From: Octopus sinensis
Taxonomy: Eukaryota
Direction: 5' to 3'
Length of the DNA: 64,000 nt
NCBI RefSeq assembly: GCF_006345805.1
Contig: NC_043006.1
Location: 10,354,001-10,418,000, forward strand
Part shown: in pieces, positions 3,562 through 62,380 of the stretch
How positions within the stretch are numbered: position 1 is the first letter of the stretch
Layout of the letters: every line of letters starts with the position of its first letter
Program-made: the position numbers and the translations under genes
Notes under the pieces: generated by a model
What the model was told of the DNA's origin: nothing
Database searches by the model: none
Seen by the model: the letters and a program-made list of their open reading frames with translations, nothing else

Positions 3562-4002
3562 ACTCTTACTCTTTTTATTCTTTTACTTGTGTCAGTCATG
3601 TGACTGCGGCCATGCTGGAGCACCACCTTTATTCGAGCAAATCGACCCCCCAGGACTTATTCTTTGTAATCCTAGTATTTATTCTATCGTTCTCTTTTGC
3701 CGAACTGCCAAGTTACGCGTGCGTAAACACACCAGAATCGGTTGTCAAGCGATATTGGTAGTGGGGACAAACACAGACACACAAACATATACACACTCAC
3801 GCACACACATATATATATCTTTATATATATATATATATATACGACGGGCTTTTTTCAGTTTCCATCTACCAAATCCACTCACAAGGCTTTGGTCGGCCCG
3901 AGGCTATAGTAGAAGACGCTTGACCAAGATGCCATGTAGTGGGACTGAACCCAGAACCATGTGGTTAGTAAGCAAGCTACTTACCACAAAGCCACTCCTA
4001 CA
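3562..4002 (-). mobile_element. SINE family B (tRNA head, CORE-like segment, internal microsatellite; OR2-like)
   Basis: Minus strand reads GTAGGAGTGGCTTTGTGGTAAGTAGC...GGTTCAGTCCC...ATCTTGGTCAAGCGTCTTC, with a GTAAAAGA-type repeat tail. Homologous to 31165, 57109 and 61970. Confidence 0.85.
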
Positions 4003-4679
4003 CCTTGTTAACTTATCTGGAGAAATTTGTAGCATTCGTCGGTGGCGGCTCTCAAACTGATTTTCAGGTTGTGTTGTACTGTGTGATTCTATATATAAGA
4101 GATTTGGGTGTGTCTGCAGTGGGGTTGGGGTTTGTTAATAACAAGTGCGAGAATGAAGGTGTGTTGGTGAATCAGGGCTGTAAGACAATAGTGAATGGTA
4201 AAAACAAGATAATTGATTGAGAGTGGAGTTAGGAGGTGATGGGGGTGTTTAATGAGTGTTTTATGAAGGGCTTAAGGAATTCCCCTCCTGATTGTTCCAT
4301 TTGGATAGTTGACCATTGGTGAAAAATATAATGGTCAGATGTTTCTCAAACTTTTTTTATGGCTGAATCAACTATATCAATTTCATAAAGAGAAGCTTCA
4401 GTAATTCTCTATGTTAAAGATGAGTTTAGATGTGTGTCTGGGGAGAGAGGTAATGAATTGCTAGATAATGCCTTTTGATAAAAAGGGAATGATAGCAGAG
4501 AGAAAAAAAATAAGGTTAGTTTTGTAATGTTTGTTGATAGAAATGTATTTTTCATATATTGGTTATGTTGGGTACTTAGCGTCTGCTGTATATTATTTGT
4601 GAGTCTTTTATGAGTGCATTCATTTTGGGGGATTGCTGGAGAATTGGGAGATATTGTTTGGTGGCTTTCAATCTAAAAA

Positions 4680-25960: not shown

Positions 25961-26027
25961 TATATGTATATATATATATATGTACACCTCTTCAAACACT
26001 CTATATTTATATTATATATTTGTGTGA

Positions 26028-27243
26028 GTAGGGACAACGGAAAAGTGGACCTCGTTTCAAAAATATGATCACATGATCACACTTGAACATACGCCTACGG
26101 TTGTAGATCATAAAAGATTCTTTCTTAAGACTTTATTAATTGAAAAATATGGTATTAATTTGGGAAAGAGATGAAAGTGGTTAGCTAAAAGTAAGAAAAA
26201 ATTAATCGTGCTGAGGAAATATGTTACAAGTGTATATCAGTAATTATTATTATGCATCTCGATGTAGTGTCGTTGCTCCTGCTTTGATAAGTTACTTTAT
26301 AATGGTTTTTACACAGTGATATGTAGAATTTAATAAACCTGTATGTAGATAGGAGAACGTAAAAATAAAATAATACATAAAAATATTAATGTATATAAAT
26401 ACTTCGGTTTGGGATTTGGTTTGCAAGATTCTTTATATGATTTCGTGTGTTGAAGCATATTCAGTTGTGTCTGAGGAGAGTCATTTCCTATTTGTGTCTT
26501 ATAATATATAACACACTCACCGGTAAAACTTCCACTTTTTTCTTACTTTTATTTTCCAAAAATTTTAGTCAAGACTATTGAAAAGGTTGGAAGACGCAAA
26601 GAAAGTTTTAGAAAAATAAAAATAAGAAAAAAGTGGAAATTTTACCGGTGAGTTTGTTAAATTATAAGGCACAAAAAGAAAATGGCTCTCCCCAGACGCA
26701 ACAGTATATAAATACTAATATCTATTAATATTAATGATGACAATATAAACGATTATGAAATACTAATTGTGGTTTTACACTATTATGTGTTTGTGATTGG
26801 TGGGAAGATCCCCTTTCAGTTCTTCCCGCATTTTTCATTAAATTCTAAACTTTTCAAATTATTAGTTTATTTTTTTCTTTTCATTCATCTTCTATCCTAT
26901 GCGAATTAATATCAAATTTCTTACGTGATCAAATATTTGTTGTATTACATTCCTCTCTGGACTTCTCGTGTTTATATTGCAATCAGCTCTTGTTCTTTTT
27001 CCGTCCCGGATGTTTTAAAACGATTATTTCTACATTGCCCTGACAGATTTATATAACATCTTTTACATAGGTTCAAGATAGTTCTAAATTACGCTGTATT
27101 GTTGATTTGATATAAAAGATTTGTTGTACTAAATCATTGTGTCCTATTTCATTGCAGAATCGACAACCATCCTACAGAATTTGGTGATCCTTTTCGTTTT
27201 CACATCGCTTCGGAAAAAAGTGGAAATTTTGGCTGCCGTTCAA
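26028..27243 (+). mobile_element. Non-coding interspersed element (probable non-autonomous DNA transposon), copy 1, carrying a 300-bp nested insertion
   Basis: Colinear with 32908-33790 along its whole length (TGATCACATGATCACA...CCTTTTCGTTTTCACATC.CTTCGGAAAAAGTGG). No ORF; termini degenerate. Confidence 0.7.
26404..26703. mobile_element. 300-bp fold-back insertion (PLE-derived-like) with 13-bp TSD
   Basis: Flanked by GTATATAAATACT at 26391-26403 and 26704-26716. Internal inverted arms 26464-26566 and 26602-26702. Absent from the paralog near 33275. Confidence 0.85.
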
Positions 27244-29458: not shown

Positions 29459-30737
29459 TTGGGTTGTCCGGAAATTTCGTGCCGATTTATAGTAGCTTAC
29501 ATTTCGACTTTGTTTTAACATGGTTGAGTCCATAAAATGGGATTTGACTACACCTCCATTTATAGTATATTTTAAGCTATCTTTTCGTGGAAGAAGGCTT
29601 ATGTTCCTATAACCTGAGTTAATTATGTAACCCTTTAAAATGGAAGATAAGAAAGTTCATTTTCGGCACTTGATGATTTTCTTTTTCCGTACAGGAAAAA
29701 ATGCCTCACAAGCAACCAAAGAATTATGCGCAGTTTATGGTGATGTTTCTTTATCCGAAAGAACTGTACGGAAGTGGTTCGGAAGGTTCCAAGCTGGAGA
29801 TTGTAGCCTTATCGATAAAGAGTGATCAGGTAGACCATCCACTACAGATGATGACCAAATCAAGTCATTAATTGAGAATAACCCACATTTTACAACGCTA
29901 GAATTGGCAGAAAGCCTCAATCTATCAAAATCCGTCGTTCATCAGCAACTGGTAAAGCTTGGGTACACAAATCGCTACGATGTTTGGGTACCACAAAAGT
30001 TGAGTGAGAAGAACTTTTTGTATCGTATTTCCATCTGGGATTCGCTTTATAAACGGAATTAAAACGCGCCTTTTTTAAAGCAAATTGTGACAGGTGATGA
30101 GAAATGGATTATTTACCGAAATGTTTAGAGAAAGTGATCCTGGAGTAAGCGACATGAGCCGCCGTAGCCACACCCAAAGCGGGTCTTCACCCTAAAAAAT
30201 TCTTGCTTTGCGTCTGGTGGGATTGGAAAGGAATTCTGTACTATGAGCTTCCCCCCAAGTAACCAGAAAATTAATTCTGAGAATTATTGCATACAACTGG
30301 ACGAGTTAAAGCAGCAATTCAAGAGAAACATCCAGTATCGGCCAGCAGGCAGGTCGTTGTTTTCGAACATGATAATGCAAGACCGCAAGTTTCTTTGGGA
30401 ACCAGGCAAAAATTGCTGCAGCTCGGCTGGCATGTATTACCCACCCTTCATATTCACCAGATATTGATCCTTCGGATTTCCACTTATTCAGTCTTTGCAG
30501 AATAGTCTTAATGGTAAAAATATCAATTCCTTGGATGACGCAAAAAGATACCTTGCTGAATCCTTTGCCATGAAACCACCTCAATTCTGGGAAGAGGGTA
30601 TTTTCAAGATAAAGGGAAGATGGAGATGCATTGTGCAATAAAATGTTTCATATTTGGTTGATAAAAAATGTAATAGCAAATATTTATTGACCGTTTCATT
30701 TCCTTTGAAAATCAGCACGAACTTTCCGGGCAATATA
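29459..30737 (+). mobile_element. Full-length mariner transposon with inactivated transposase (~29640-30665)
   Basis: TIRs TTGGGTTGTCCGGAAATTTCGTGCCGATTT and AAATCAGCACGAACTTTCCGGGCAAT, TA flanks. Motifs AVYG..SERTVRKWF.RF, SGRP, WVP.KL, IVTGDEKWI, CVWWD, HDNARP and YSPDIDPSDFHLF, with several stops and frameshifts. Confidence 0.95.
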
Positions 30738-30754
30738 TATATATACATATATAA

Positions 30755-30833
<79 letters not shown>

Positions 30834-31026
30834 CATAGATATATATATAAAATTTTAAGCATATAATTAGAAAATATATAATTATAATTAAGGACTCTGT
30901 AATAGCAGCGCCTACACTCTAGAAGTAGATGTCAAATACCTACAATCCACAGTGAATTTGTTTTCTATTTACATCCCAAGATCGAATGGGAGGTAATGAG
31001 CGAGAAGATTTACAAATTTTTCGGAT

Positions 31027-31088
31027 AACCTTATATATTTCCGTGCTCTGTAATGTAATAAAGATTACTTTACCCTCCTCAGTAGAGA
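31027..31088 (-). ncRNA. Hammerhead ribozyme motif, partly degenerate
   Basis: Minus strand reads TCTA-CTGAGGA-GGG...CAC-G-GAAA-TATA-TA. The core is intact; stems I and II are eroded. Confidence 0.45.
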
Positions 31089-31164
31089 TATACCAACAAT
31101 ATATAAGCGAAATATACATATACATACCGATAAATTTTTGCCTACGGATACCAACTCTCTCTAT

Positions 31165-31397
31165 TACTCTTTTACTTATTTCAGTCATTCGACTATGGCC
31201 ATGCAGGAGCACCGCCTTTAGTCGAGCAAATTGACCCCAGGACTTATTCTTTGTAAGTCTGGTACTTATTCTATCGGCCTCTTTTGCCGAACCGCTATGT
31301 TACGGGGACTTAAACACACCAGCATCGGCTGTCAAGCGATGTTGGGGGGACAAACACAGACACACAATCATACACACACACACACACACATACACAC

Positions 31398-31429
<32 letters not shown>

Positions 31430-31598
31430 CCATACGACGGGCATCTTTCAGTTTCCGTCTATCAAATCCAATCACAAGGCTTTGGTCGACCCGCGGCTAT
31501 AGTAGAAGACACTTGCCCAAGGTGCCAGGCAGTGGGACTGAACCCGGAACCATTTGGTTGGTGAGCAAGCTACTTTCCATGCAGCCACTCCTACGCCT
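31165..31598 (-). mobile_element. SINE family B, full length, nested in the HHR unit
   Basis: Minus-strand head AGGCGTAGGAGTGGCTGCATGG...GGTTCAGTCCC...GGCACCTTGGGCAAGTGTCTTC. Confidence 0.88.
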
Positions 31599-31876
31599 AT
31601 ATATATACATGCATTTCCCCGGCTATACGTTATATCTAATCACCCATTTCGGCTGTGTGGCTAACATCAGAAATCATACATAGTAAATATAGTACCGCAG
31701 CATAATATAATGACAAGAGCATACTCAAAAATTATTTATACTTTTGAATTGAGGATATAATCATTAAAATAATTATATCAGTGGGAAATGCATGTATATA
31801 TTGTCATCTGTACGCAAAAATTTTATCGGCATGTATTTGGATTTTTTTACGTGTCGTTGTGCGTAGCAGCTTGATA

Positions 31877-32243
31877 TCTTTATATATAAATGTGAGATTG
31901 TGTGCTCTCTGTCTCCTACGATTTTGGTCCCTAACTACTCCCACATTTTGCGGTGCAGTTTAACCAAAACAGGGTATCTTATAGTTGTGATTAATATCGA
32001 GCCCTTCTGGGTATTAGCGCGCGTCTACAATGAGGCTACGATTTTTAAAAAATTACCATCAATTTTTCCCATTTTTAATAACTCTCTAAAAATTTATTAT
32101 TAAATCTCAGAACGTAAAAAGCTACAGTAACACCCCCCTCTGTGGTTAGCCATATTGAGATGGCTATTATACTTTACATCTCAAAACATGCTTATATAGT
32201 TATTTCCCTTACAAACCCGAGCAACGCCGGGCAATACTGCTAG
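31877..32243 (+). mobile_element. Non-autonomous Helitron
   Basis: 5' TCTTTATATATAAA, 3' CCCGAGCAACGCCGGG...CTAG, A|T target. Near-identical to 48158-48553. Confidence 0.85.
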
Positions 32244-32767
32244 TTGTCTATATATCTATACTGAAGTGTGTAAAGTAATCTTTAGAACAGAGTAATAAGT
32301 TTTAAGATATAGAATTATCCGAAATTTTGCAAAACGTCTTGCTCATTACCTCGCATTCGACGTTGCGTTATAAATAGAGAAAAAATTTGGAGTGGATTGT
32401 ATTTATTTGACGTCTCCTTCTAGCGAATAGTCGCTGCCATTCCAGTACACTTAATTATAATTATATTTTCATAATTATATGGCTTAAAATTAATTTTACC
32501 GATATAGTCGTTTTTATATGCTAGCCACTGATATAATCATTTTAATTAATATATCCTCAATTTCCAAGTATAAATAATTTTGTTCTCTAGTAATTATCTT
32601 ATGCTGCAGTACTATATTTACCACGTATGATTTGTGACATTAGCCACACCATCGAGATAAGCGATTAACTGTAATGTATAGGCGATGAATGCATGTATAT
32701 ATTGGTATCTGTACGCAAAAATACATCGGTGTGTATATACATTTTTCGCTTATATACTGTTGGTATA

Positions 32768-32807
32768 TCTACTGAGGAGTGTAGAGTAATCTTTACTACA
32801 GAGCACG

Positions 32808-32810
<3 letters not shown>
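32768..32810 (+). ncRNA. Hammerhead ribozyme 5' part, split at stem III by a microsatellite and an insertion
   Basis: TCTA-CTGAGGA-GTG...CAC-GAAA followed by (TC)n(TA)n. The stem I partner TAGA and the downstream unit resume at 33789. Confidence 0.55.
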
Positions 32811-32861
<51 letters not shown>

Positions 32862-32876
32862 TATATATATATATAT

Positions 32877-32907
<31 letters not shown>

Positions 32908-32909
<2 letters not shown>

Positions 32910-33790
32910 AGGCGGTGGGTAACGTGGATCCCATTTCAAAAACACGATCACATGATCACAGTTGAACATACACCTAAGGTTGTAGATCATAAAAGATTAT
33001 TTCTTAAAACTTTATTGAATGAAAGATATGGTATTAATTTGGGAAAGAGATGAAAGTGGGTAGCTAAAAGTAAGAAAAAAATTAATTGTGCTGACGAAAT
33101 ATGTTGCAGGTGTATATCAGTATGTATTATTATGCATCTCGATGTAGTGTCGTTGTTCTTGCTTTGATAAAGTTACTTTATAATGTCGTTTACACGGTGA
33201 TATGTAGAATTTAATAAACCTGTATGTAGATAGGAGAACGTAAAAATAAAATAATACATAATATAAATGTTAATTTATATCAATACTAATAACTATTAAT
33301 ATTAATGATGACAATATAAACGATAATGAAATAGCAGCTGTGTTTTTCACTATTATGCGTTTGTGATTGATGGAAAGATCCCCTTCTTGTTCTTGCTGCA
33401 TTTTTCATTATAATCTAACCTTTTCAAATTACTGCTTTATTTTTTAATTCATCTTCTATTTTATGCGAATGAATATCAATTTGTTTACGTGATCAAACAT
33501 TTCTCTCTGTTCTTCTCTTGTTTATGTTGCATTAGCTTTTATTCTTTTACCATCCCGGATGTTATAAAACGGTTATATCTACAATGTTCTGATAGATTTA
33601 CAAAATCTTTTATAAAGGTTCAAGATAGTTTGAAAGTAAGTTTTATTGTTAATTTGATATGAAAAATCTGTTATACTAAATAATTGTGTCCCGTTTTTAA
33701 TTTTTTTTTTTTTTCAGAACTTACAACCATCATACAACATTTAATGGACCTTTTCGTTTTCACATCTCTTCGGAAAAAGTGGATATTTTA
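32908..33790 (+). mobile_element. Non-coding interspersed element, copy 2 (empty-site paralog of 26028-27243)
   Basis: Colinear with copy 1 and lacks the 26404-26703 insert. Confidence 0.7.
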
Positions 33791-35999
33791 GATCATCCGA
33801 AATTTTGTAAATCTTCTACTCATTATCTCGCATTCGACCTTGGGTTATAAATAGAGAACAAATTTATAGTAGATTGTAGATATTTGACAGAAATGCCGGC
33901 GCTTATTCGCTAGAAAGCGTATAAGTGCCGGCATTCCAGCACACTTAATTATAATTATAATTTTATAATTATATACTTGAAAATTAATTTTACCAATATG
34001 GTCGTTTTTCTATACGCTAGCCACTGATATAATCATTGTAATAATTATATCCTCAAATTATAAGTGTGTGTGCGCGCCGGCGTGTATGTGTGTAGGTGTA
34101 TAAATTTATACAAGCAAACTTATACACACACATGCAGAAACACATGCATATATTTATATTATATAGGTTGCGCTGAAATCCACTTTGGGTCCTTTTGAAG
34201 CGCATCTGCTTATTCCAGTACCCAAGCGTGTGTGTTAATATTACATTAGTGTGAGGTATTCATGAAAGTTGAATATACAGTAGAGAAATTATACATCAAA
34301 ATAGAAGATTGGAAGAAAGCATTCGGCATTGTTTATTCACCATTACACATGTTTAATTTGCTCATAGGTGTTGCCAAATCACAGATGCAGCGTTAAATAT
34401 CTCTTCCTATTCGAAATCCTTTATTTCGAGGGTTTTCTTCTCAACTTGGGTTTACCAACATTGTTTTTATCTACATCAGCAAAGAGGTTAGGTTTATGCA
34501 GCCAGCAAGTCTGATGAGTCACCTAAATTGTTAAGGGCACCACACTACTACATTGAAACCAATCTTATATTTCTGACACCGCCCAAAACCATCGACTACA
34601 AAGAAATACGCCCGAATGACAAACTACCTCAACACTCAAGTATAAGAACACCAGGCCCAGATCAAAGACGAAATAATGCAAAGAATTTGAACACACAACA
34701 ATTTTCCCAAATGAAACATCCAAGGGAAACGAACATCTAAAAGATGCCGCCCAACAGTAACATCCCTTGATTCATTGATTCATTGTTTTAAACAGTGTGA
34801 ATTTGCGAGAATCTCCGCCAAGTAAATGAGGTTGTGTTTTCCAATACGGAGGCAAACAACTTTCTCCATGTGACTGGAATTAAATATTATTAAGACATAA
34901 CCGTAGTTTCCTATTCTTCTTCAGAAGAAACCAATGGTAGCTTTAATTCACAAATAAAGAAATTATAACCACCAATGCGGTGTTGAGCACTCATTTTCAT
35001 CATTCGATATTTACTTTTTTACGATGTACTTACATAGCAAGTGATTTGATCTGAGATCGTGTGCTGAAACGAAAACAATTGCAGCGTGGAAGGTGTTTGT
35101 AAGCCATTTAAGAAACACACAAAAGCCTTTCGATTCACTTCAACATTTAAGTTTAACACACACACACACACATATATATGTATATAGGCGAATTCAAAAG
35201 TACTAAAAAGTAGTAAAACGAAACTAACCAAATACTTTACATACATATTTTCATTTAGTTTTATGTTGTGTACTTAATACTTACTGTGCCTCTAAACTAT
35301 TGTGGCAGTATAATACAAACTGTACAATATATGTTTTTTTTTTTCCCTGTATTCAAAATTAGATAACATGTTCTTCGTGTTTCAATATTGATTCATTGAT
35401 TAGAAACAGCATCAATTGTTTCAAAGATCATAATCGATTGATGCCACCCACGCATTTTTCTTATACTTATTTTATCGACGATTTAAATCACTATCAAGTC
35501 GTGATTCGATCTTTTAACAAGCAGGAAAGATATTAGACATTACATTAGATATTAGATATTAGTTATCTGCGTCCTCAGCATTTCGAACACTGAGGCCACC
35601 ATTTCCTTTGGAATGTACCGTACATGCTTCAATTGGAAATTTTTTCCAATTACATGCCTGATACTTCAGCGAGCGCATTCCATTTAATTTTCTTAATAAG
35701 ATCCAGTTCGGAAGAACGATCCCATTACTGTCTGAGAGTGACCTAAAGTAAACATGGGAACAACGTCGGCTTCAAATGATGGCTGCGGCCAATTCACTTC
35801 ATATTTTACTAATGTATCCGGATATAACATGGATCACGCATCACCTTGCACAAGATTCACGTGTGCGACTGAGCGTAAGGGATGCATTTATTGAAGGGTT
35901 CCATTACTTCTACGTAAATTTCATGAAATGTCTCAATGTCCACTCCGTTCAGCTAAACTAGCAATTCAGTTGCTTTGTTTCGAAATATGGATGCGTGTT

Positions 36000-47072: not shown

Positions 47073-47239
47073 ATATTAGGGAATGAATCCCAAATTACAG
47101 GGAAAAATCAGATTTAGGGTTAAATCCAATTTTATAGTAAAATATTATATAATATAATTCGAGACAAAACCACTATTTTAAAACCAAACAAGGAAAGACT
47201 TAATCAAAACATAAAATTTTAATAAAATTAAATAAACCG

Positions 47240-47282
47240 CCACTACAAATGTTTCATGTCTGCTCCGACAATCTTCAGGTGG
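47240..47282 (-). ncRNA. Type I hammerhead ribozyme motif (mirror copy)
   Basis: Exact reverse complement of 47351-47393. Confidence 0.8.
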
Positions 47283-47350
47283 ATTTTCGATCTTCTAATC
47301 AGTATCAAATTTTGAAGTCAGGTGGAATATATGATTAGAAGATCGAAAAT

Positions 47351-47393
47351 CCACCTGAAGATTGTCGGAGCAGACATGAAACATTTGTAGTGG
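47351..47393 (+). ncRNA. Type I hammerhead ribozyme motif (intact core)
   Basis: CCAC-CTGAAGA-t-TGTC ggagca GACA-t-GAA-ACA tt TGT-A-GTGG. All three stems close; predicted GUA cleavage after 47389. Confidence 0.8.
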
Positions 47394-47476
47394 CGGTTTA
47401 TTTAATTTTATTAAAATTTTATGTTTTGATTAAGTCTTTCCTTGTTTGGTTTTAAAATAGTGGTTTTGTCTCGAAT

Positions 47477-47584
<108 letters not shown>

Positions 47585-47989: not shown

Positions 47990-49250
47990 GGAGGGAAGAA
48001 AGTAGGGAGTGGTGTAAGAGTTGGAGTAATGGAAAGGTGGGAGTGAGGATGAGGGTGTATGGGATGGAGAGGATGGGGAGGTGTGTGTGTGTAATGGCGT
48101 CGAGTGAGACAGGATGAGAGAGTGAGTGAAGTTTGTTGTCTAATGCGATTGAGCAAATCTTTATATATAAAAGTGAGGTTGTGTGCTGTCTGTCTCCTAC
48201 GATTTAGATTCCTAACTACTCCCACATTTTGCGGTGCAGTTTAACCAAAACCGGGTATCTTATAGTCGTGATTCATATCGAGCCCTTCTGGGTATTAGCG
48301 CGTGTCTACGATCAGTCTACGATTTAAAGAAAAAATTACCATCAATTTTTCCCATTTTTAATGCATTTTTGGCATATATAAGGGAAGTAACTCTCTAAAA
48401 ATTTATTATTAAATCACAGAACGTAAAAAGCTACAGTAACACCCCCCCTTTGTGGTTAACCATATTGAGATGGCTATTATACTTTACATCTCTAAAAATG
48501 CTTATATAGTTATTTCCCTTAGAAACCCGAGCAACGCCGGGCGATACTGCTAGTCTTGAATAAAGTCGTTTAGATTGAGGTTAAAGCGTAAAACAGAGTG
48601 AGCAACAGATGGTAGGCAGCAAAAGAAGAGGTGGCGGAAGAGAGTAAGGGAAGTATGTGAAAGGTGTGTATTTTGGAGAGCTTAGAGTGAATGGTGGCAC
48701 GCAAGATCAGGCAGATTGTGGAGCGAAGTATGGGTAAGATGGCAAAGTAGAATGAGAGGTAGGGTGGAAATGGAGGCGGAAATCTTTTGAGATGAGGTTG
48801 TGATGAAGGGAGCGACTGAATAGGAAAACGTTACTAGAGAAAGGTGGATTTAGTGTTTTAATGAATAGGGAAAGATTAATAGAAGCTTGAACGCAGCAGA
48901 AAGGAGGGAATGAGACGTGGTAACATATTTTTTTAGGCAGTGTTAAAAGTGGAGGAGGAACCATTTATGATTACGAATGAAGACAAGGCGAAAATAATTT
49001 TAGATGGAGAGAATAGGGCAAAGTTATTAACGTACGGAGCTCAAAAGTTCGGACAGTTTAAAACTTGCGGTAGATTAGTGCGATTTATATCGACGAAAAT
49101 AGCCAGTAAATAGCCATGGAGTCCGAAAGAGTACGAAAGCCCAATGGTAATCCGGGTGGAGTGCTGGTTATTTGGATGAGGAAAGGTATCGAAAGTTCGG
49201 AAAGTATAATAGTTAAGACAGAGTCCAATAGAGTAATAAGTTAGGCAGGA
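47990..49250 (-). pseudogene. Possible very old LINE RT relic (L1/Tx1-like), interrupted by a Helitron
   Basis: Strong purine/pyrimidine strand skew. Minus-strand relics FRTFDTFPH (KAFD-like) and SFVIINGSSSTF (xING-like). Weak. Confidence 0.3.
48158..48553 (+). mobile_element. Non-autonomous Helitron
   Basis: 5' TCTTTATATATAAAAG, 3' CCCGAGCAACGCCGGG...CTAG, A|T target. Confidence 0.85.
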
Positions 49251-57108: not shown

Positions 57109-57455
57109 TACTCTTTTACTTGTTTCAGTCACTTCACTGCCGCCATGCTAGAGCACCGCCTTTAGTCGAGCAAATCAACCCTAGGACGTATTCTTTGTAA
57201 ACCTAGTACTTATTCTATCGGTTTGTTTTGCCGAACCGCTAAGTTATGGAACGTAAACATACCAATACACACACACACACATACATATATACGACGGGCT
57301 TCTTTCAGTTTCCGTCTACCAAATCCACTCACAAGGCTTTGGTCGGCCCTAGGCTATAGTAGAAGATACTTGCCTAGGGTGCCACGCATTGGGACTGAAC
57401 CCGGAACCAAGTGGTTGGTAAGCAAGATACTTACCACACAGCCACTCCTGTGGCT
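57109..57455 (-). mobile_element. SINE family B with internal deletions
   Basis: Homologous to 3562, 31165 and 61970; lacks the GGTTGTCAAGCG...GGGACAAAC block. Confidence 0.85.
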
Positions 57456-57510
<55 letters not shown>

Positions 57511-61969: not shown

Positions 61970-62380
61970 ATACTCTTTTACTCTTTACTCTTTTACTTGT
62001 TTCAGTCATTTGACTGCGGCCATGCTGGAGCACCGCCTTTAGTCGAGCAAATCGACCCCGGGACTTATTCTTTGTAAGCTCAGTGCTTATTCTATCGGTC
62101 GCTTTTGCCGACCGCTAAGTGACGGGGACGTAAACACCCAGCATCGGTTGTCAAGCAATGCTAGGAGACAAACAGAGACACAAACACACACACACCACAA
62201 CACACACACACATATAATATTATACATACGACAGGCTTCTTTCAGTTTCCGTCTACCAAATCCACTCACAAGGCATTGGTCCGCCCGGGGCTATAGCAGA
62301 AGAACACTTGCCCAAGATGCCACGCAGTGGGACTGAACCCGGAACCATGTGGTTGGTTAGCAAGCTACTTACCACACAGC
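61970..62380 (-). mobile_element. SINE family B
   Basis: (CTCTTTTA)n tail, body and head homologous to the other family B copies. Confidence 0.88.

Follow-up and report, generated by a model that had tools for sequence, protein, structure and literature searches.

The locus at positions 30850–34065 of the window (the whole stretch of 64 kb that was analysed) carries repeat units with hammerhead-like motifs, arranged head-to-tail on one strand and continued by an inverted unit on the other. The question is what kind of element could produce such a structure, and how it came to be inserted. Several alternatives are considered: the locus could be a copy of a ribozyme-bearing retrozyme mobilised by a Penelope-like element (PLE), a PLE-mobilised element in which the ribozyme motif no longer matters, a set of end pieces of a PLE itself, or the product of events at the DNA level. 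Judged from the sequence, the first is the most probable: we consider the window copy to be an old two-armed member of the animal non-LTR retrozymes, inserted by a PLE and belonging to a family whose majority sequence contains the hammerhead motif, with a probability of roughly 0.72.

The region is a single copy of a repeat that is non-coding, rich in A+T and dispersed in the genome; it has two arms, and three later repeats are nested inside them. The features, in the order of the window, are as follows.

30733–30849, no strand: (TA)n microsatellite (repeat family D1), adjoining the 3' end of the minus arm
30850–31154, minus: distal part of the minus arm (monomer ~398 to 519, then 1 to ~180)
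31155–31600, plus: SINE-like insertion of 446 bp nested in the minus arm, with copies elsewhere in the window and at many loci
31601–31786, minus: proximal (5') part of the minus arm (monomer ~213–398), its 5' end touching the plus arm
31784–31847, plus: start of the plus arm (monomer ~380–443)
31848–31876, no strand: 29 unaligned bases that match neither the family nor the Helitron-like element and replace ~11 family bases
31877–32243, plus: nested Helitron-like non-autonomous element of 367 bp (5' TC, 3' CTAG after a GC hairpin)
32244–32810, plus: plus arm, end of the first partial unit and one full unit
32811–33790, plus: insertion of 0.98 kb, comprising a (CT)n/(TA)n/(GT)n run and a nested ~0.9-kb repeat
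33791–34065, plus: last part of the plus arm (monomer 4 to ~260)

The minus arm amounts to approximately 0.97 unit and the plus arm to approximately 1.77 units, and they meet head-to-head at 31784–31786 with a 3-nt GGG/CCC overlap. When the segment 32250–32810 was compared with the whole window by blastn, it matched 30851–31154 and 31601–31784 on the minus strand and 31787–31846, 32250–32810 and 33792–34065 on the plus strand; an nhmmer extension of the minus arm past 31786, to 31942, was rejected as a spurious, low-posterior artefact. An earlier sequence-only reading had described plus-strand repeats 901 bp apart (31787 to 32688), interrupted by a 367-bp Helitron and resuming near 33789–34065. 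All of this is borne out: the repeat pair (family D5) is 94% identical over 35 nt, the last blastn piece lies where the unit was said to resume, and the Helitron-like element, inserted at an A|T site, has the expected ends and hairpin and a second, ~87% identical copy at 48157–48554. The unit length derived from this spacing (901 − 367, i.e. ~534 bp) holds for the window copy, which reaches 534 nt through extra bases, but not for the family, where the period is 514–519 nt. Similarly, the inverted minus-strand unit proposed in that reading is real and meets the plus arm as described, but it falls slightly short of a full unit and contains the SINE-like insertion.

This SINE-like repeat (~440 bp) is very abundant, having four further copies in the window and more across many loci, and is outside the retrozyme-like family; a tRNA scan of the region found none. 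The second copy of the ~0.9-kb repeat occupies window positions 25967–26403 plus 26705–27230. On the outer sides of the copy, the (TA)n microsatellite at 30733–30849 is the likely insertion target, and a GT-rich run directly follows the end of the plus arm at 34065.

Genome-wide, the family is represented by at least 86 scored matches at 70–84% identity (the first-look candidates for three family queries numbered 400, 188 and 351), and overlapping head-to-tail matches give its period of approximately 514–519 nt. The unit contains 30% G+C and no stop-free frame above 86 aa, and the monomer folds better than any of 100 shuffles (z = −4.33). The architecture of copies was described in 62 non-redundant stretches (204 kb, 93 arms), gathered by three queries, so that arms without the queried regions are under-sampled.

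The 3' ends of the arms are concentrated at two sites approximately 85 nt apart: 42 arms end at site B (monomer 243–272), 31 at site A (157–190) and 20 elsewhere, hence 73/93 end at A or B, and the coverage along the monomer drops stepwise at both. The 5' ends are variable, with a hot spot at monomer 50–66 (18/93 versus 3.0 expected) that is seen in both short and long arms and falls on a TA-rich, partly palindromic word. The permuted starts noticed in the sequence-only reading are really these variable 5' truncations together with two fixed 3' ends; its appeal to a circular or multimeric RNA stands in so far as arms longer than one unit need a multimeric or circular template. Such arms account for 21/93, the longest being 915 nt; none of the 93 reaches two units, and no coding sequence lies between successive units in the 21. 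Tandem arrangement elsewhere in the genome, which had been proposed as a check, is thereby confirmed. The family copies have no fixed inverted-repeat ends and the majority sequence has the hammerhead motif, so that the outcomes named beforehand as speaking against an array of this type are absent.

Among the 93 arms there are 29 head-to-head pairs. In all 17 pairs with both ends classifiable one arm ends at A and the other at B, with no A/A and no B/B (chance ~5e-6 under independent ends); one further A/B pair was left out as a segmental duplicate. In the window copy, the minus arm terminates at site A, and the plus arm at site B, just past a conserved 12-bp hairpin. Since the same arrangement recurs in the 29 pairs, the inverted unit of the window copy is the usual Penelope-type head-to-head partner arm. 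The two arms of a pair are unequal and their inner ends differ in nearly every case; solo arms are also present, and copies are scattered over many contigs. A dinucleotide run lies within 40 nt of 33/46 classified 3' ends, and a TA-type run of 25/46, against a background of 9–14%.

According to the available part of PMC8557442, PLE insertions form partial tandems, carry on their 5' side a further 5'-truncated copy in inverted orientation, have a tail at one end only, and use (TA)n targets; in a PLE both strands are nicked and extended, and two internal reverse-transcription start sites bound the tail (PMC11167929). The family resembles PLEs in its 5' truncation, partial tandems, inverted 5'-truncated copy at the 5' end and (TA)n or AT-rich targets (PMC8557442, same part), in a one-ended tail bounded by two fixed start sites (PMC11167929), and in having, upstream of the start sites, a hammerhead whose helix II is long and whose helix III is palindromic (PMC4209133, as far as its accessible text goes). 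It differs in having no RT/GIY-YIG reading frame, a tail of ~85 nt versus 30–40 bp, and no resemblance in sequence to the 30 sampled PLE loci. As these features of copy shape match the published PLE footprint, insertion by the reverse transcriptase/endonuclease of a PLE is likely.

The hammerhead motif is broken in all three window copies, and a generic type I descriptor finds no intact hammerhead in the whole 64-kb window. The minus-arm hammerhead (core CTGAGGA at 31076–31082, GAAA at 31038–31041) is damaged by a 5-nt duplication in helix II and deletion of the helix III palindrome, and its aligned row (L001:266-352:-) keeps 8/11 core bases, with a hammerhead fold of +7.2 kcal/mol. Hammerhead 1 (32258–32309, plus arm) is decayed, the core being CTGAAGT and the GAAA box lost (row L001:1492-1578:+, 8/11 core bases, hammerhead fold +16.6 kcal/mol), and the predicted position of its ancestral cut is 32309|32310. 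In hammerhead 2 (32772–32810) the core, helix II and GAAA survive, but the sequence breaks off after GAAATCT, exactly where the 0.98-kb insertion replaces helix III and the cut site. The core positions given in the sequence-only reading (31076–31082 on the minus strand, 32258 and 32772–32778) were therefore correct, but none is within an intact hammerhead. With no intact hammerhead at this locus, no monomer would be released there; the ~535-nt product envisaged from successive cleavages is abandoned, also because the family monomer has 514–519 nt. The notion of one hammerhead per unit survives at the level of the family, where the majority sequence has a complete type I motif.

In the majority of 53 copies the motif reads C3 U4 G5 A6 N7 G8 A9, G12 A13 A14 A15.1, U16.1 and H17 = A, i.e. 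all invariant hammerhead core bases are present in the type I order. All 11 fixed core bases occur in 26/53 copies, and in 14/53 the helices are kept too, leaving the motif intact; among the core columns, variability is highest at N7, the only free position (G 34, A 14, T 2). Cleavage is predicted at the A|U step after the helix III palindrome, and one copy, L004:1305-2101 on the minus strand, has two intact motifs. Helix II is long (28 nt, two-part) and helix III is a 10-nt palindrome that can form a 10-bp duplex of −11.2 kcal/mol; the accessible text of PMC4209133 gives long helix II and palindromic helix III as traits of PLE and metazoan hammerheads. The generic descriptor matched 12 family copies in the loci. 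Pairing in the named three-helix structure, in which helix I is open and helices II and III are closed as in type I, reaches 86% of cells versus 23–46% with slid partners, a control that flatters the figure, as the structure was drawn from the consensus. The pairs 33/56, 10/94 and 38/51 form series of the C-G, U-G, U-A type, and the covariation excess is modest (21 cells versus 12.6) and may represent a few subfamily events.

These data have to be weighed against the best-surviving alternative, which we regard as improbable yet worth serious attention: a PLE-mobilised non-autonomous element with an inactive or vestigial hammerhead-like motif, the templates being linear transcripts of genomic partial tandems rather than cut or circular RNA. 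It agrees with the results of the Rfam hammerhead models, which gave no match at gathering score on the window, nor with E limits of 10 on 4 kb, of 5 on seven loci and of 10 on a 111-nt segment that surrounds an intact copy; however, the majority sequence has the eleven fixed core bases and three helices in their proper order, and chance matches to the descriptor are rare (60 dinucleotide shuffles of the 64-kb window gave a single one). The weak monomeric fold also favours this alternative (in intact copies, −1.6 to −7.7 kcal/mol for the hammerhead versus minimum free energies of −10.8 to −19.8), but helix III is palindromic, as it is in known dimer-acting hammerheads according to the accessible text of PMC4209133. 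The z-scores of the 87-nt hammerhead segments are only −0.7 to −2.8, RNAalifold predicted no consensus structure for the 53 copies, and conservation of the hammerhead region is hardly above the rest of the unit. A further argument for inactivity comes from the 10.1-11.1 pair at the base of helix II, for which 52 distinct rows show G-C in 14 cases, G-U in 6 and no pairing, mostly U-U, in 27 (about half); U-U at this position has been described in one axolotl hammerhead group (PMC7229834, portion available). The absence of arms of two units or more points the same way, as does the report that for one PLE hammerhead cleavage is dispensable for insertion in vitro (PMC11167929). Finally, the 5' hot spot at monomer 50–66 in arms of any length looks as if derived from a fixed RNA 5' end, but is equally explicable by microhomology with (TA)n targets or the partner cDNA.

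Logan contigs of four runs, of uncertain kind, cover the element at L004:1000-2400. Contig breaks at L004 1521–1529 and 2040–2048 were rejected as a sign of cleavage: the stretch is identical in both units, and they are most simply assembly breaks. The missing contig cover at L004 1097–1324 corresponds to a masked simple repeat.

The genome is rich in autonomous PLEs: a first look gave 5029 GIY-YIG candidates, there are 147 scored matches, and two open frames contain RVT_1 followed by GIY-YIG. The unit has no significant blastn match (word 7) in 30 RT/GIY-YIG loci, a sample from at least 5029 candidates; a search of these same-genome loci with six short motifs of the family, mismatches allowed, gave no match either. 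An autonomous PLE sharing its pseudo-LTR or tail with the unit was not found among these 30. A canonical descriptor found one unrelated hammerhead in the 30 loci.

It is highly improbable that the repeats form no family of their own but are what remains of a protein-coding PLE after 5' truncation, namely its pseudo-LTR and tail. PLE insertions are indeed mostly 5'-truncated, with the hammerhead in the pseudo-LTR (PMC8557442 and PMC4209133, both in the portions available), but wherever an arm exceeds one unit (21 arms), the next unit begins 514–519 nt further on without intervening coding sequence, the longest frame does not exceed 86 aa, and the 30 RT/GIY-YIG loci show no similarity by either search. 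The least credible is an origin at the DNA level, either as a transposon of the foldback or terminal-inverted-repeat type or as a local satellite containing an inversion; the long inverted arms in the window (I1–I3, I10) suggest it, but it conflicts with unequal arms and differing inner ends in nearly every pair, with outer ends at two different fixed sites rather than one terminal repeat, and with the existence of solo arms and the dispersal over many contigs.

If the copies are retrozymes inserted by a PLE, the hammerhead would cut transcripts that exceed one unit in length, probably acting as a dimer of two ribozymes paired through the palindromic helix III, and the cut monomer might be ligated into a circle. 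The PLE enzyme would then nick both strands of a TA-rich target, and reverse transcription would start inside the RNA, from site A on one DNA strand and from site B on the other. Both cDNAs would extend towards the 5' side of the element and halt at variable points; they would be joined head-to-head, probably when synthesis jumps from the RNA template to the other cDNA. If a circle were copied in rolling-circle fashion, some arms should reach two units, and there are none (0/93). The hammerhead-cut linear monomer was rejected as the template, as only 1/93 arm starts lies within 5 nt of the cut site versus 1.8 expected, and a snap-back origin of the inverted arm was rejected, as the two arms of a pair have different starts, with only a few exceptions.

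A more specific interpretation of the 17/17 A/B rule is offered tentatively. It could reflect coordinated two-stranded integration, in which a paired PLE enzyme primes one DNA strand per start site, the sites flanking an 85-nt tail that contains a hairpin and belongs to one RNA molecule, processed by the ribozyme and possibly circular, and the two same-sense cDNAs are joined preferentially at short palindromes. If true, this would go beyond the in vitro finding of a strand-independent start site.

Compared with the animal non-LTR retrozymes, as portrayed in the accessible parts of Cervera and de la Pena 2020 (PMC7229834) and of Li, Clavereau and Pollet 2026 (bioRxiv 10.64898/2026.07.22.740005), the family is likewise non-coding and AT-rich (30% G+C), with head-to-tail units, a type I hammerhead-like motif in each, a strongly self-paired monomer and autonomous PLEs in the same genome. 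Its unit length is within the 51–972 bp given for retrozyme consensus sequences in that bioRxiv text, hence the monomer is not unusually long, contrary to the sequence-only reading. By the same partial accounts it differs in the size of arrays (at most ~1.8 units, versus reported dimers up to 62-mers or 300 units) and in a hammerhead with a 28-nt two-part helix II that is missed by Rfam. With plant LTR retrozymes, going by the available part of PMC4918200, it shares a non-autonomous, ribozyme-bearing nature, spread by circular RNA having been proposed for the plant elements; unlike the family, these have type III hammerheads in true LTRs, a primer-binding site and a polypurine tract, are GC-rich and depend on Gypsy-type elements for mobilisation. 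In the literature passages available we found no description of an octopus retrozyme with a hammerhead. The best reading is that the family is new, while its kind, the animal non-LTR retrozymes, is already known.

For the copying of PLEs and of dependent ribozyme-bearing repeats into genomes, a process still little understood, the approximately 100 sampled insertions of this old family, in which the window copy is dead, constitute a natural record. It shows a pair of fixed start sites, of which an arm uses one, TA microsatellites as targets, and hot spots at which arms are joined. If the hammerhead cleaves, the animal retrozymes would come to include a genome of cephalopod type, and their ribozymes an unusual one with a long stem that the standard models miss.

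The window (G000:C10:10354001-10418000, within a 2.72-Gb animal genome) carries a real, old and decayed copy of a dispersed repeat family. This copy is composed of two arms, i.e. family pieces lying each on its own strand, and is interrupted by three nested repeats, all of which are younger than the copy itself. The family pieces were delineated by blastn against the window, with positions 32250-32810 as the query:

30851-31154 and 31601-31784, minus strand: family pieces (minus arm)
31155-31600: very abundant SINE-like element, nested in the minus arm
31787-31846, 32250-32810 and 33792-34065, plus strand: family pieces (plus arm)
31877-32243: Helitron-like non-autonomous element, 367 bp, with TC...CTAG ends and a 3' hairpin, inserted between A and T
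32811-33790: 0.98-kb repeat preceded by a (CT)n run, nested in the plus arm

As the reference monomer we used the minus strand of L004:1491-2009 (519 nt; L-numbers denote loci fetched from the same genome), bounded by predicted cut sites at both ends. On this monomer, the minus arm begins at position ~213, crosses the ribozyme region and finishes at ~180 (506 nt, 0.97 unit), and the plus arm extends from ~380 through one complete unit to ~260 (~915-920 nt, 1.77 units); the 5' ends of the two arms meet at 31784-31786, overlapping by 3 nt. The coordinates of the sequence-only reading, its 901-bp spacing between the plus-strand repeats and its 367-bp Helitron are all reproduced; its ~534-bp unit was also measured correctly, but is peculiar to the window copy.

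The SINE-like repeat (~440 bp) has further copies in the window (3575-4005, 57109-57457, 61981-62380) and at L009:1155-1481 and L004:2103-2478; roughly one in two of the 3-kb loci contain it, in the examined sequencing runs its contig depth adds up to ~10^5, and in three separate family copies it is inserted at similar unit positions (~390-440). A second Helitron-like copy (48157-48554, ~87% identical; sizes 367-395 bp) shares the TC...CTAG ends, the GC hairpin and the A-T insertion site. The ~0.9-kb repeat recurs at 25967-26403 plus 26705-27230; it landed precisely in helix III of the ribozyme, behind the (CT)n run, and in L019 a different insertion of ~240 bp occupies the same unit position. 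Beyond the (TA)n flank of the minus arm, on its left, a reading frame ends at ~30640 (window ~30500-30732); its product may resemble the C-terminus of a mariner-type transposase.

Three genome searches yielded 400, 188 and 351 first-look candidates and at least 86, 43 and 43 scored matches, respectively, 70-84% identical to the window copy. Over the ribozyme region the copies are ~76-94% identical to the majority sequence, which points to an old family. G+C content of the unit is 30%, and none of its stop-free frames exceeds 86 aa; the folding energy of one monomer is -129.5 kcal/mol, compared to -104.1 +/- 5.9 in shuffled sequences (z = -4.33). For the single old copy in L004:1000-2400, over half of the sampled words were present in sequencing runs listed under five different organism codes (runs X1, X2, X9 and X14 were examined), hence this insertion may be common to close relatives, or the organism labels may overlap.

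For the insertion architecture, merging of 90 family loci left 62 non-redundant stretches (204 kb), on which 93 arms were scored. The 3' ends tend to fall at two fixed positions: 42 arms end at site B (monomer 243-272), ~15-20 nt past a 12-bp hairpin, and 31 at site A (157-190), ~85 nt upstream of B, the monomer coverage profile dropping stepwise at both; the remaining 20 end elsewhere, some being cut by later insertions or locus ends. Among 29 head-to-head arm pairs, all 17 with both ends classifiable combine A with B, while 12 have at least one unclassifiable end (seven with B, four with A, one with neither end classified); one extra A/B pair was excluded as a segmental duplicate. A dinucleotide run occurs within 40 nt beyond 33 of 46 classified ends, and a TA-type run beyond 25 of 46, against a background of 9-14%. 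Arms exceed one unit in 21 of 93 cases, and none of the 93 reaches two. The 5' starts are unevenly distributed: monomer 50-66, a TA-rich, partly palindromic word, accounts for 18 of 93 (3.0 expected), and 337-446, around a ~25-bp hairpin, for 31 (19.7 expected).

What these counts describe is the anatomy of the copies. The copying enzyme would be that of a Penelope-like element (PLE), with cDNA primed by both target strands, one at A and the other at B, and the arms presumably joined through a jump between the cDNAs. The templates would be longer than one unit, multimeric or circular; the lack of arms of two or more units and the 5' hot spot at 50-66 are as compatible with linear transcripts as with a circle, if not more so. 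Linear monomers cut by the hammerhead are excluded as templates by the near-absence of starts within 5 nt of the predicted cut site (1 of 93 arms, 1.8 expected).

In the alignment of the ribozyme region (53 distinct copies) the majority order is a helix I strand, CUGAGGA, a 28-nt helix II, GAAA, a 10-nt palindrome, A, and the second helix I strand. Helix II consists of 4-bp and 5-bp stems flanking a 3x3 internal loop; the palindrome could fold on itself into a 3-bp hairpin or pair between two molecules as a 10-bp helix III (duplex, -11.2 kcal/mol), and the A following it is the predicted cleavage nucleotide. The majority base is the expected one at all 11 fixed core positions, N7 being the most variable core column, and 14 of 53 copies pass the intactness test. 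Pairing cells make up 86.4% in the named structure and 23-46% with slid partners, and there are 21 double-change cells vs 12.6 +/- 2.7 in shuffles. As the structure was derived from the consensus and the aligned rows are related to one another, these counts lend only moderate support to a hammerhead. Several results speak against the motif: the standard 10.1-11.1 pair is absent in 27 of 52 rows, in those intact copies that were evaluated the hammerhead fold is ~8-17 kcal/mol less stable than the minimum free energy structure, RNAalifold gave no consensus structure for the motif, and Rfam hammerhead models did not match it at any scale scanned. A generic type I descriptor had no matches in the 64-kb window, one in 60 shuffles of it, and 17 in the loci (some overlapping), 12 being the family motif and five other motifs, two of those at one place.

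All three window motifs are broken:

minus-arm motif: helix II duplication, palindrome lost
plus motif 1: A9 and the GAAA box lost
plus motif 2: ends after GAAAUCU, interrupted by a microsatellite and the nested repeat

The sequence-only interpretation as a retrozyme is largely right for the family, but wrong on present activity at this locus.

Four further type I hammerhead-like motifs, unrelated in sequence to the family, occur in the flanks of family loci, far above the shuffle rate of the descriptor:

L025:2544-2589, minus strand
L043:982-1022 (= L021:938-978)
L007:2212-2252
L006:2323-2367

Two of them have an identical 5-bp helix III (AUUGG/CCAAU), and Rfam reported none in the three scanned (L025, L043, L007). 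Within a (TA)n tract of the window (47079-47487) there is also a perfect inverted repeat of 156 nt (47146-47301 and 47332-47487, 100% complementary, spacer 30 nt). Both of its arms contain a minimal hammerhead-like word (CTGAAGA, 16 nt, GAAA), and ~66 additional bases are confined to its left side. In appearance it is a young head-to-head stub of the Penelope type with a one-ended tail; related pieces were found in L069, L063 and L021/L043.

Type I hammerheads of PLEs and metazoans, as described in PMC4209133 and PMC7229834, combine a long helix II with a palindromic helix III, as does the family motif, must act as dimers and are weakly active in vitro. Craig et al. (PMC8557442) describe PLE insertions as 5'-truncated partial tandems, to whose 5' end a second, inverted and likewise 5'-truncated copy is frequently joined; a tail of 30-40 bp occurs at just one of the two ends, and some clades show a (TA)n bias. 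According to Frangieh et al. (PMC11167929), one PLE protein nicks and extends both DNA strands, initiating reverse transcription from two positions within the RNA between which the tail lies, and in vitro hammerhead cleavage is dispensable for it. Li et al. (bioRxiv 10.64898/2026.07.22.740005) give consensus lengths of 51-972 bp for animal retrozymes and relate these to PLE pseudo-LTRs. The family is non-coding, and no sequence link to a PLE was found in 30 sampled RT/GIY-YIG loci. It fits all the features described in these three studies; the family represented in the window is new, and the kind of element is already known.
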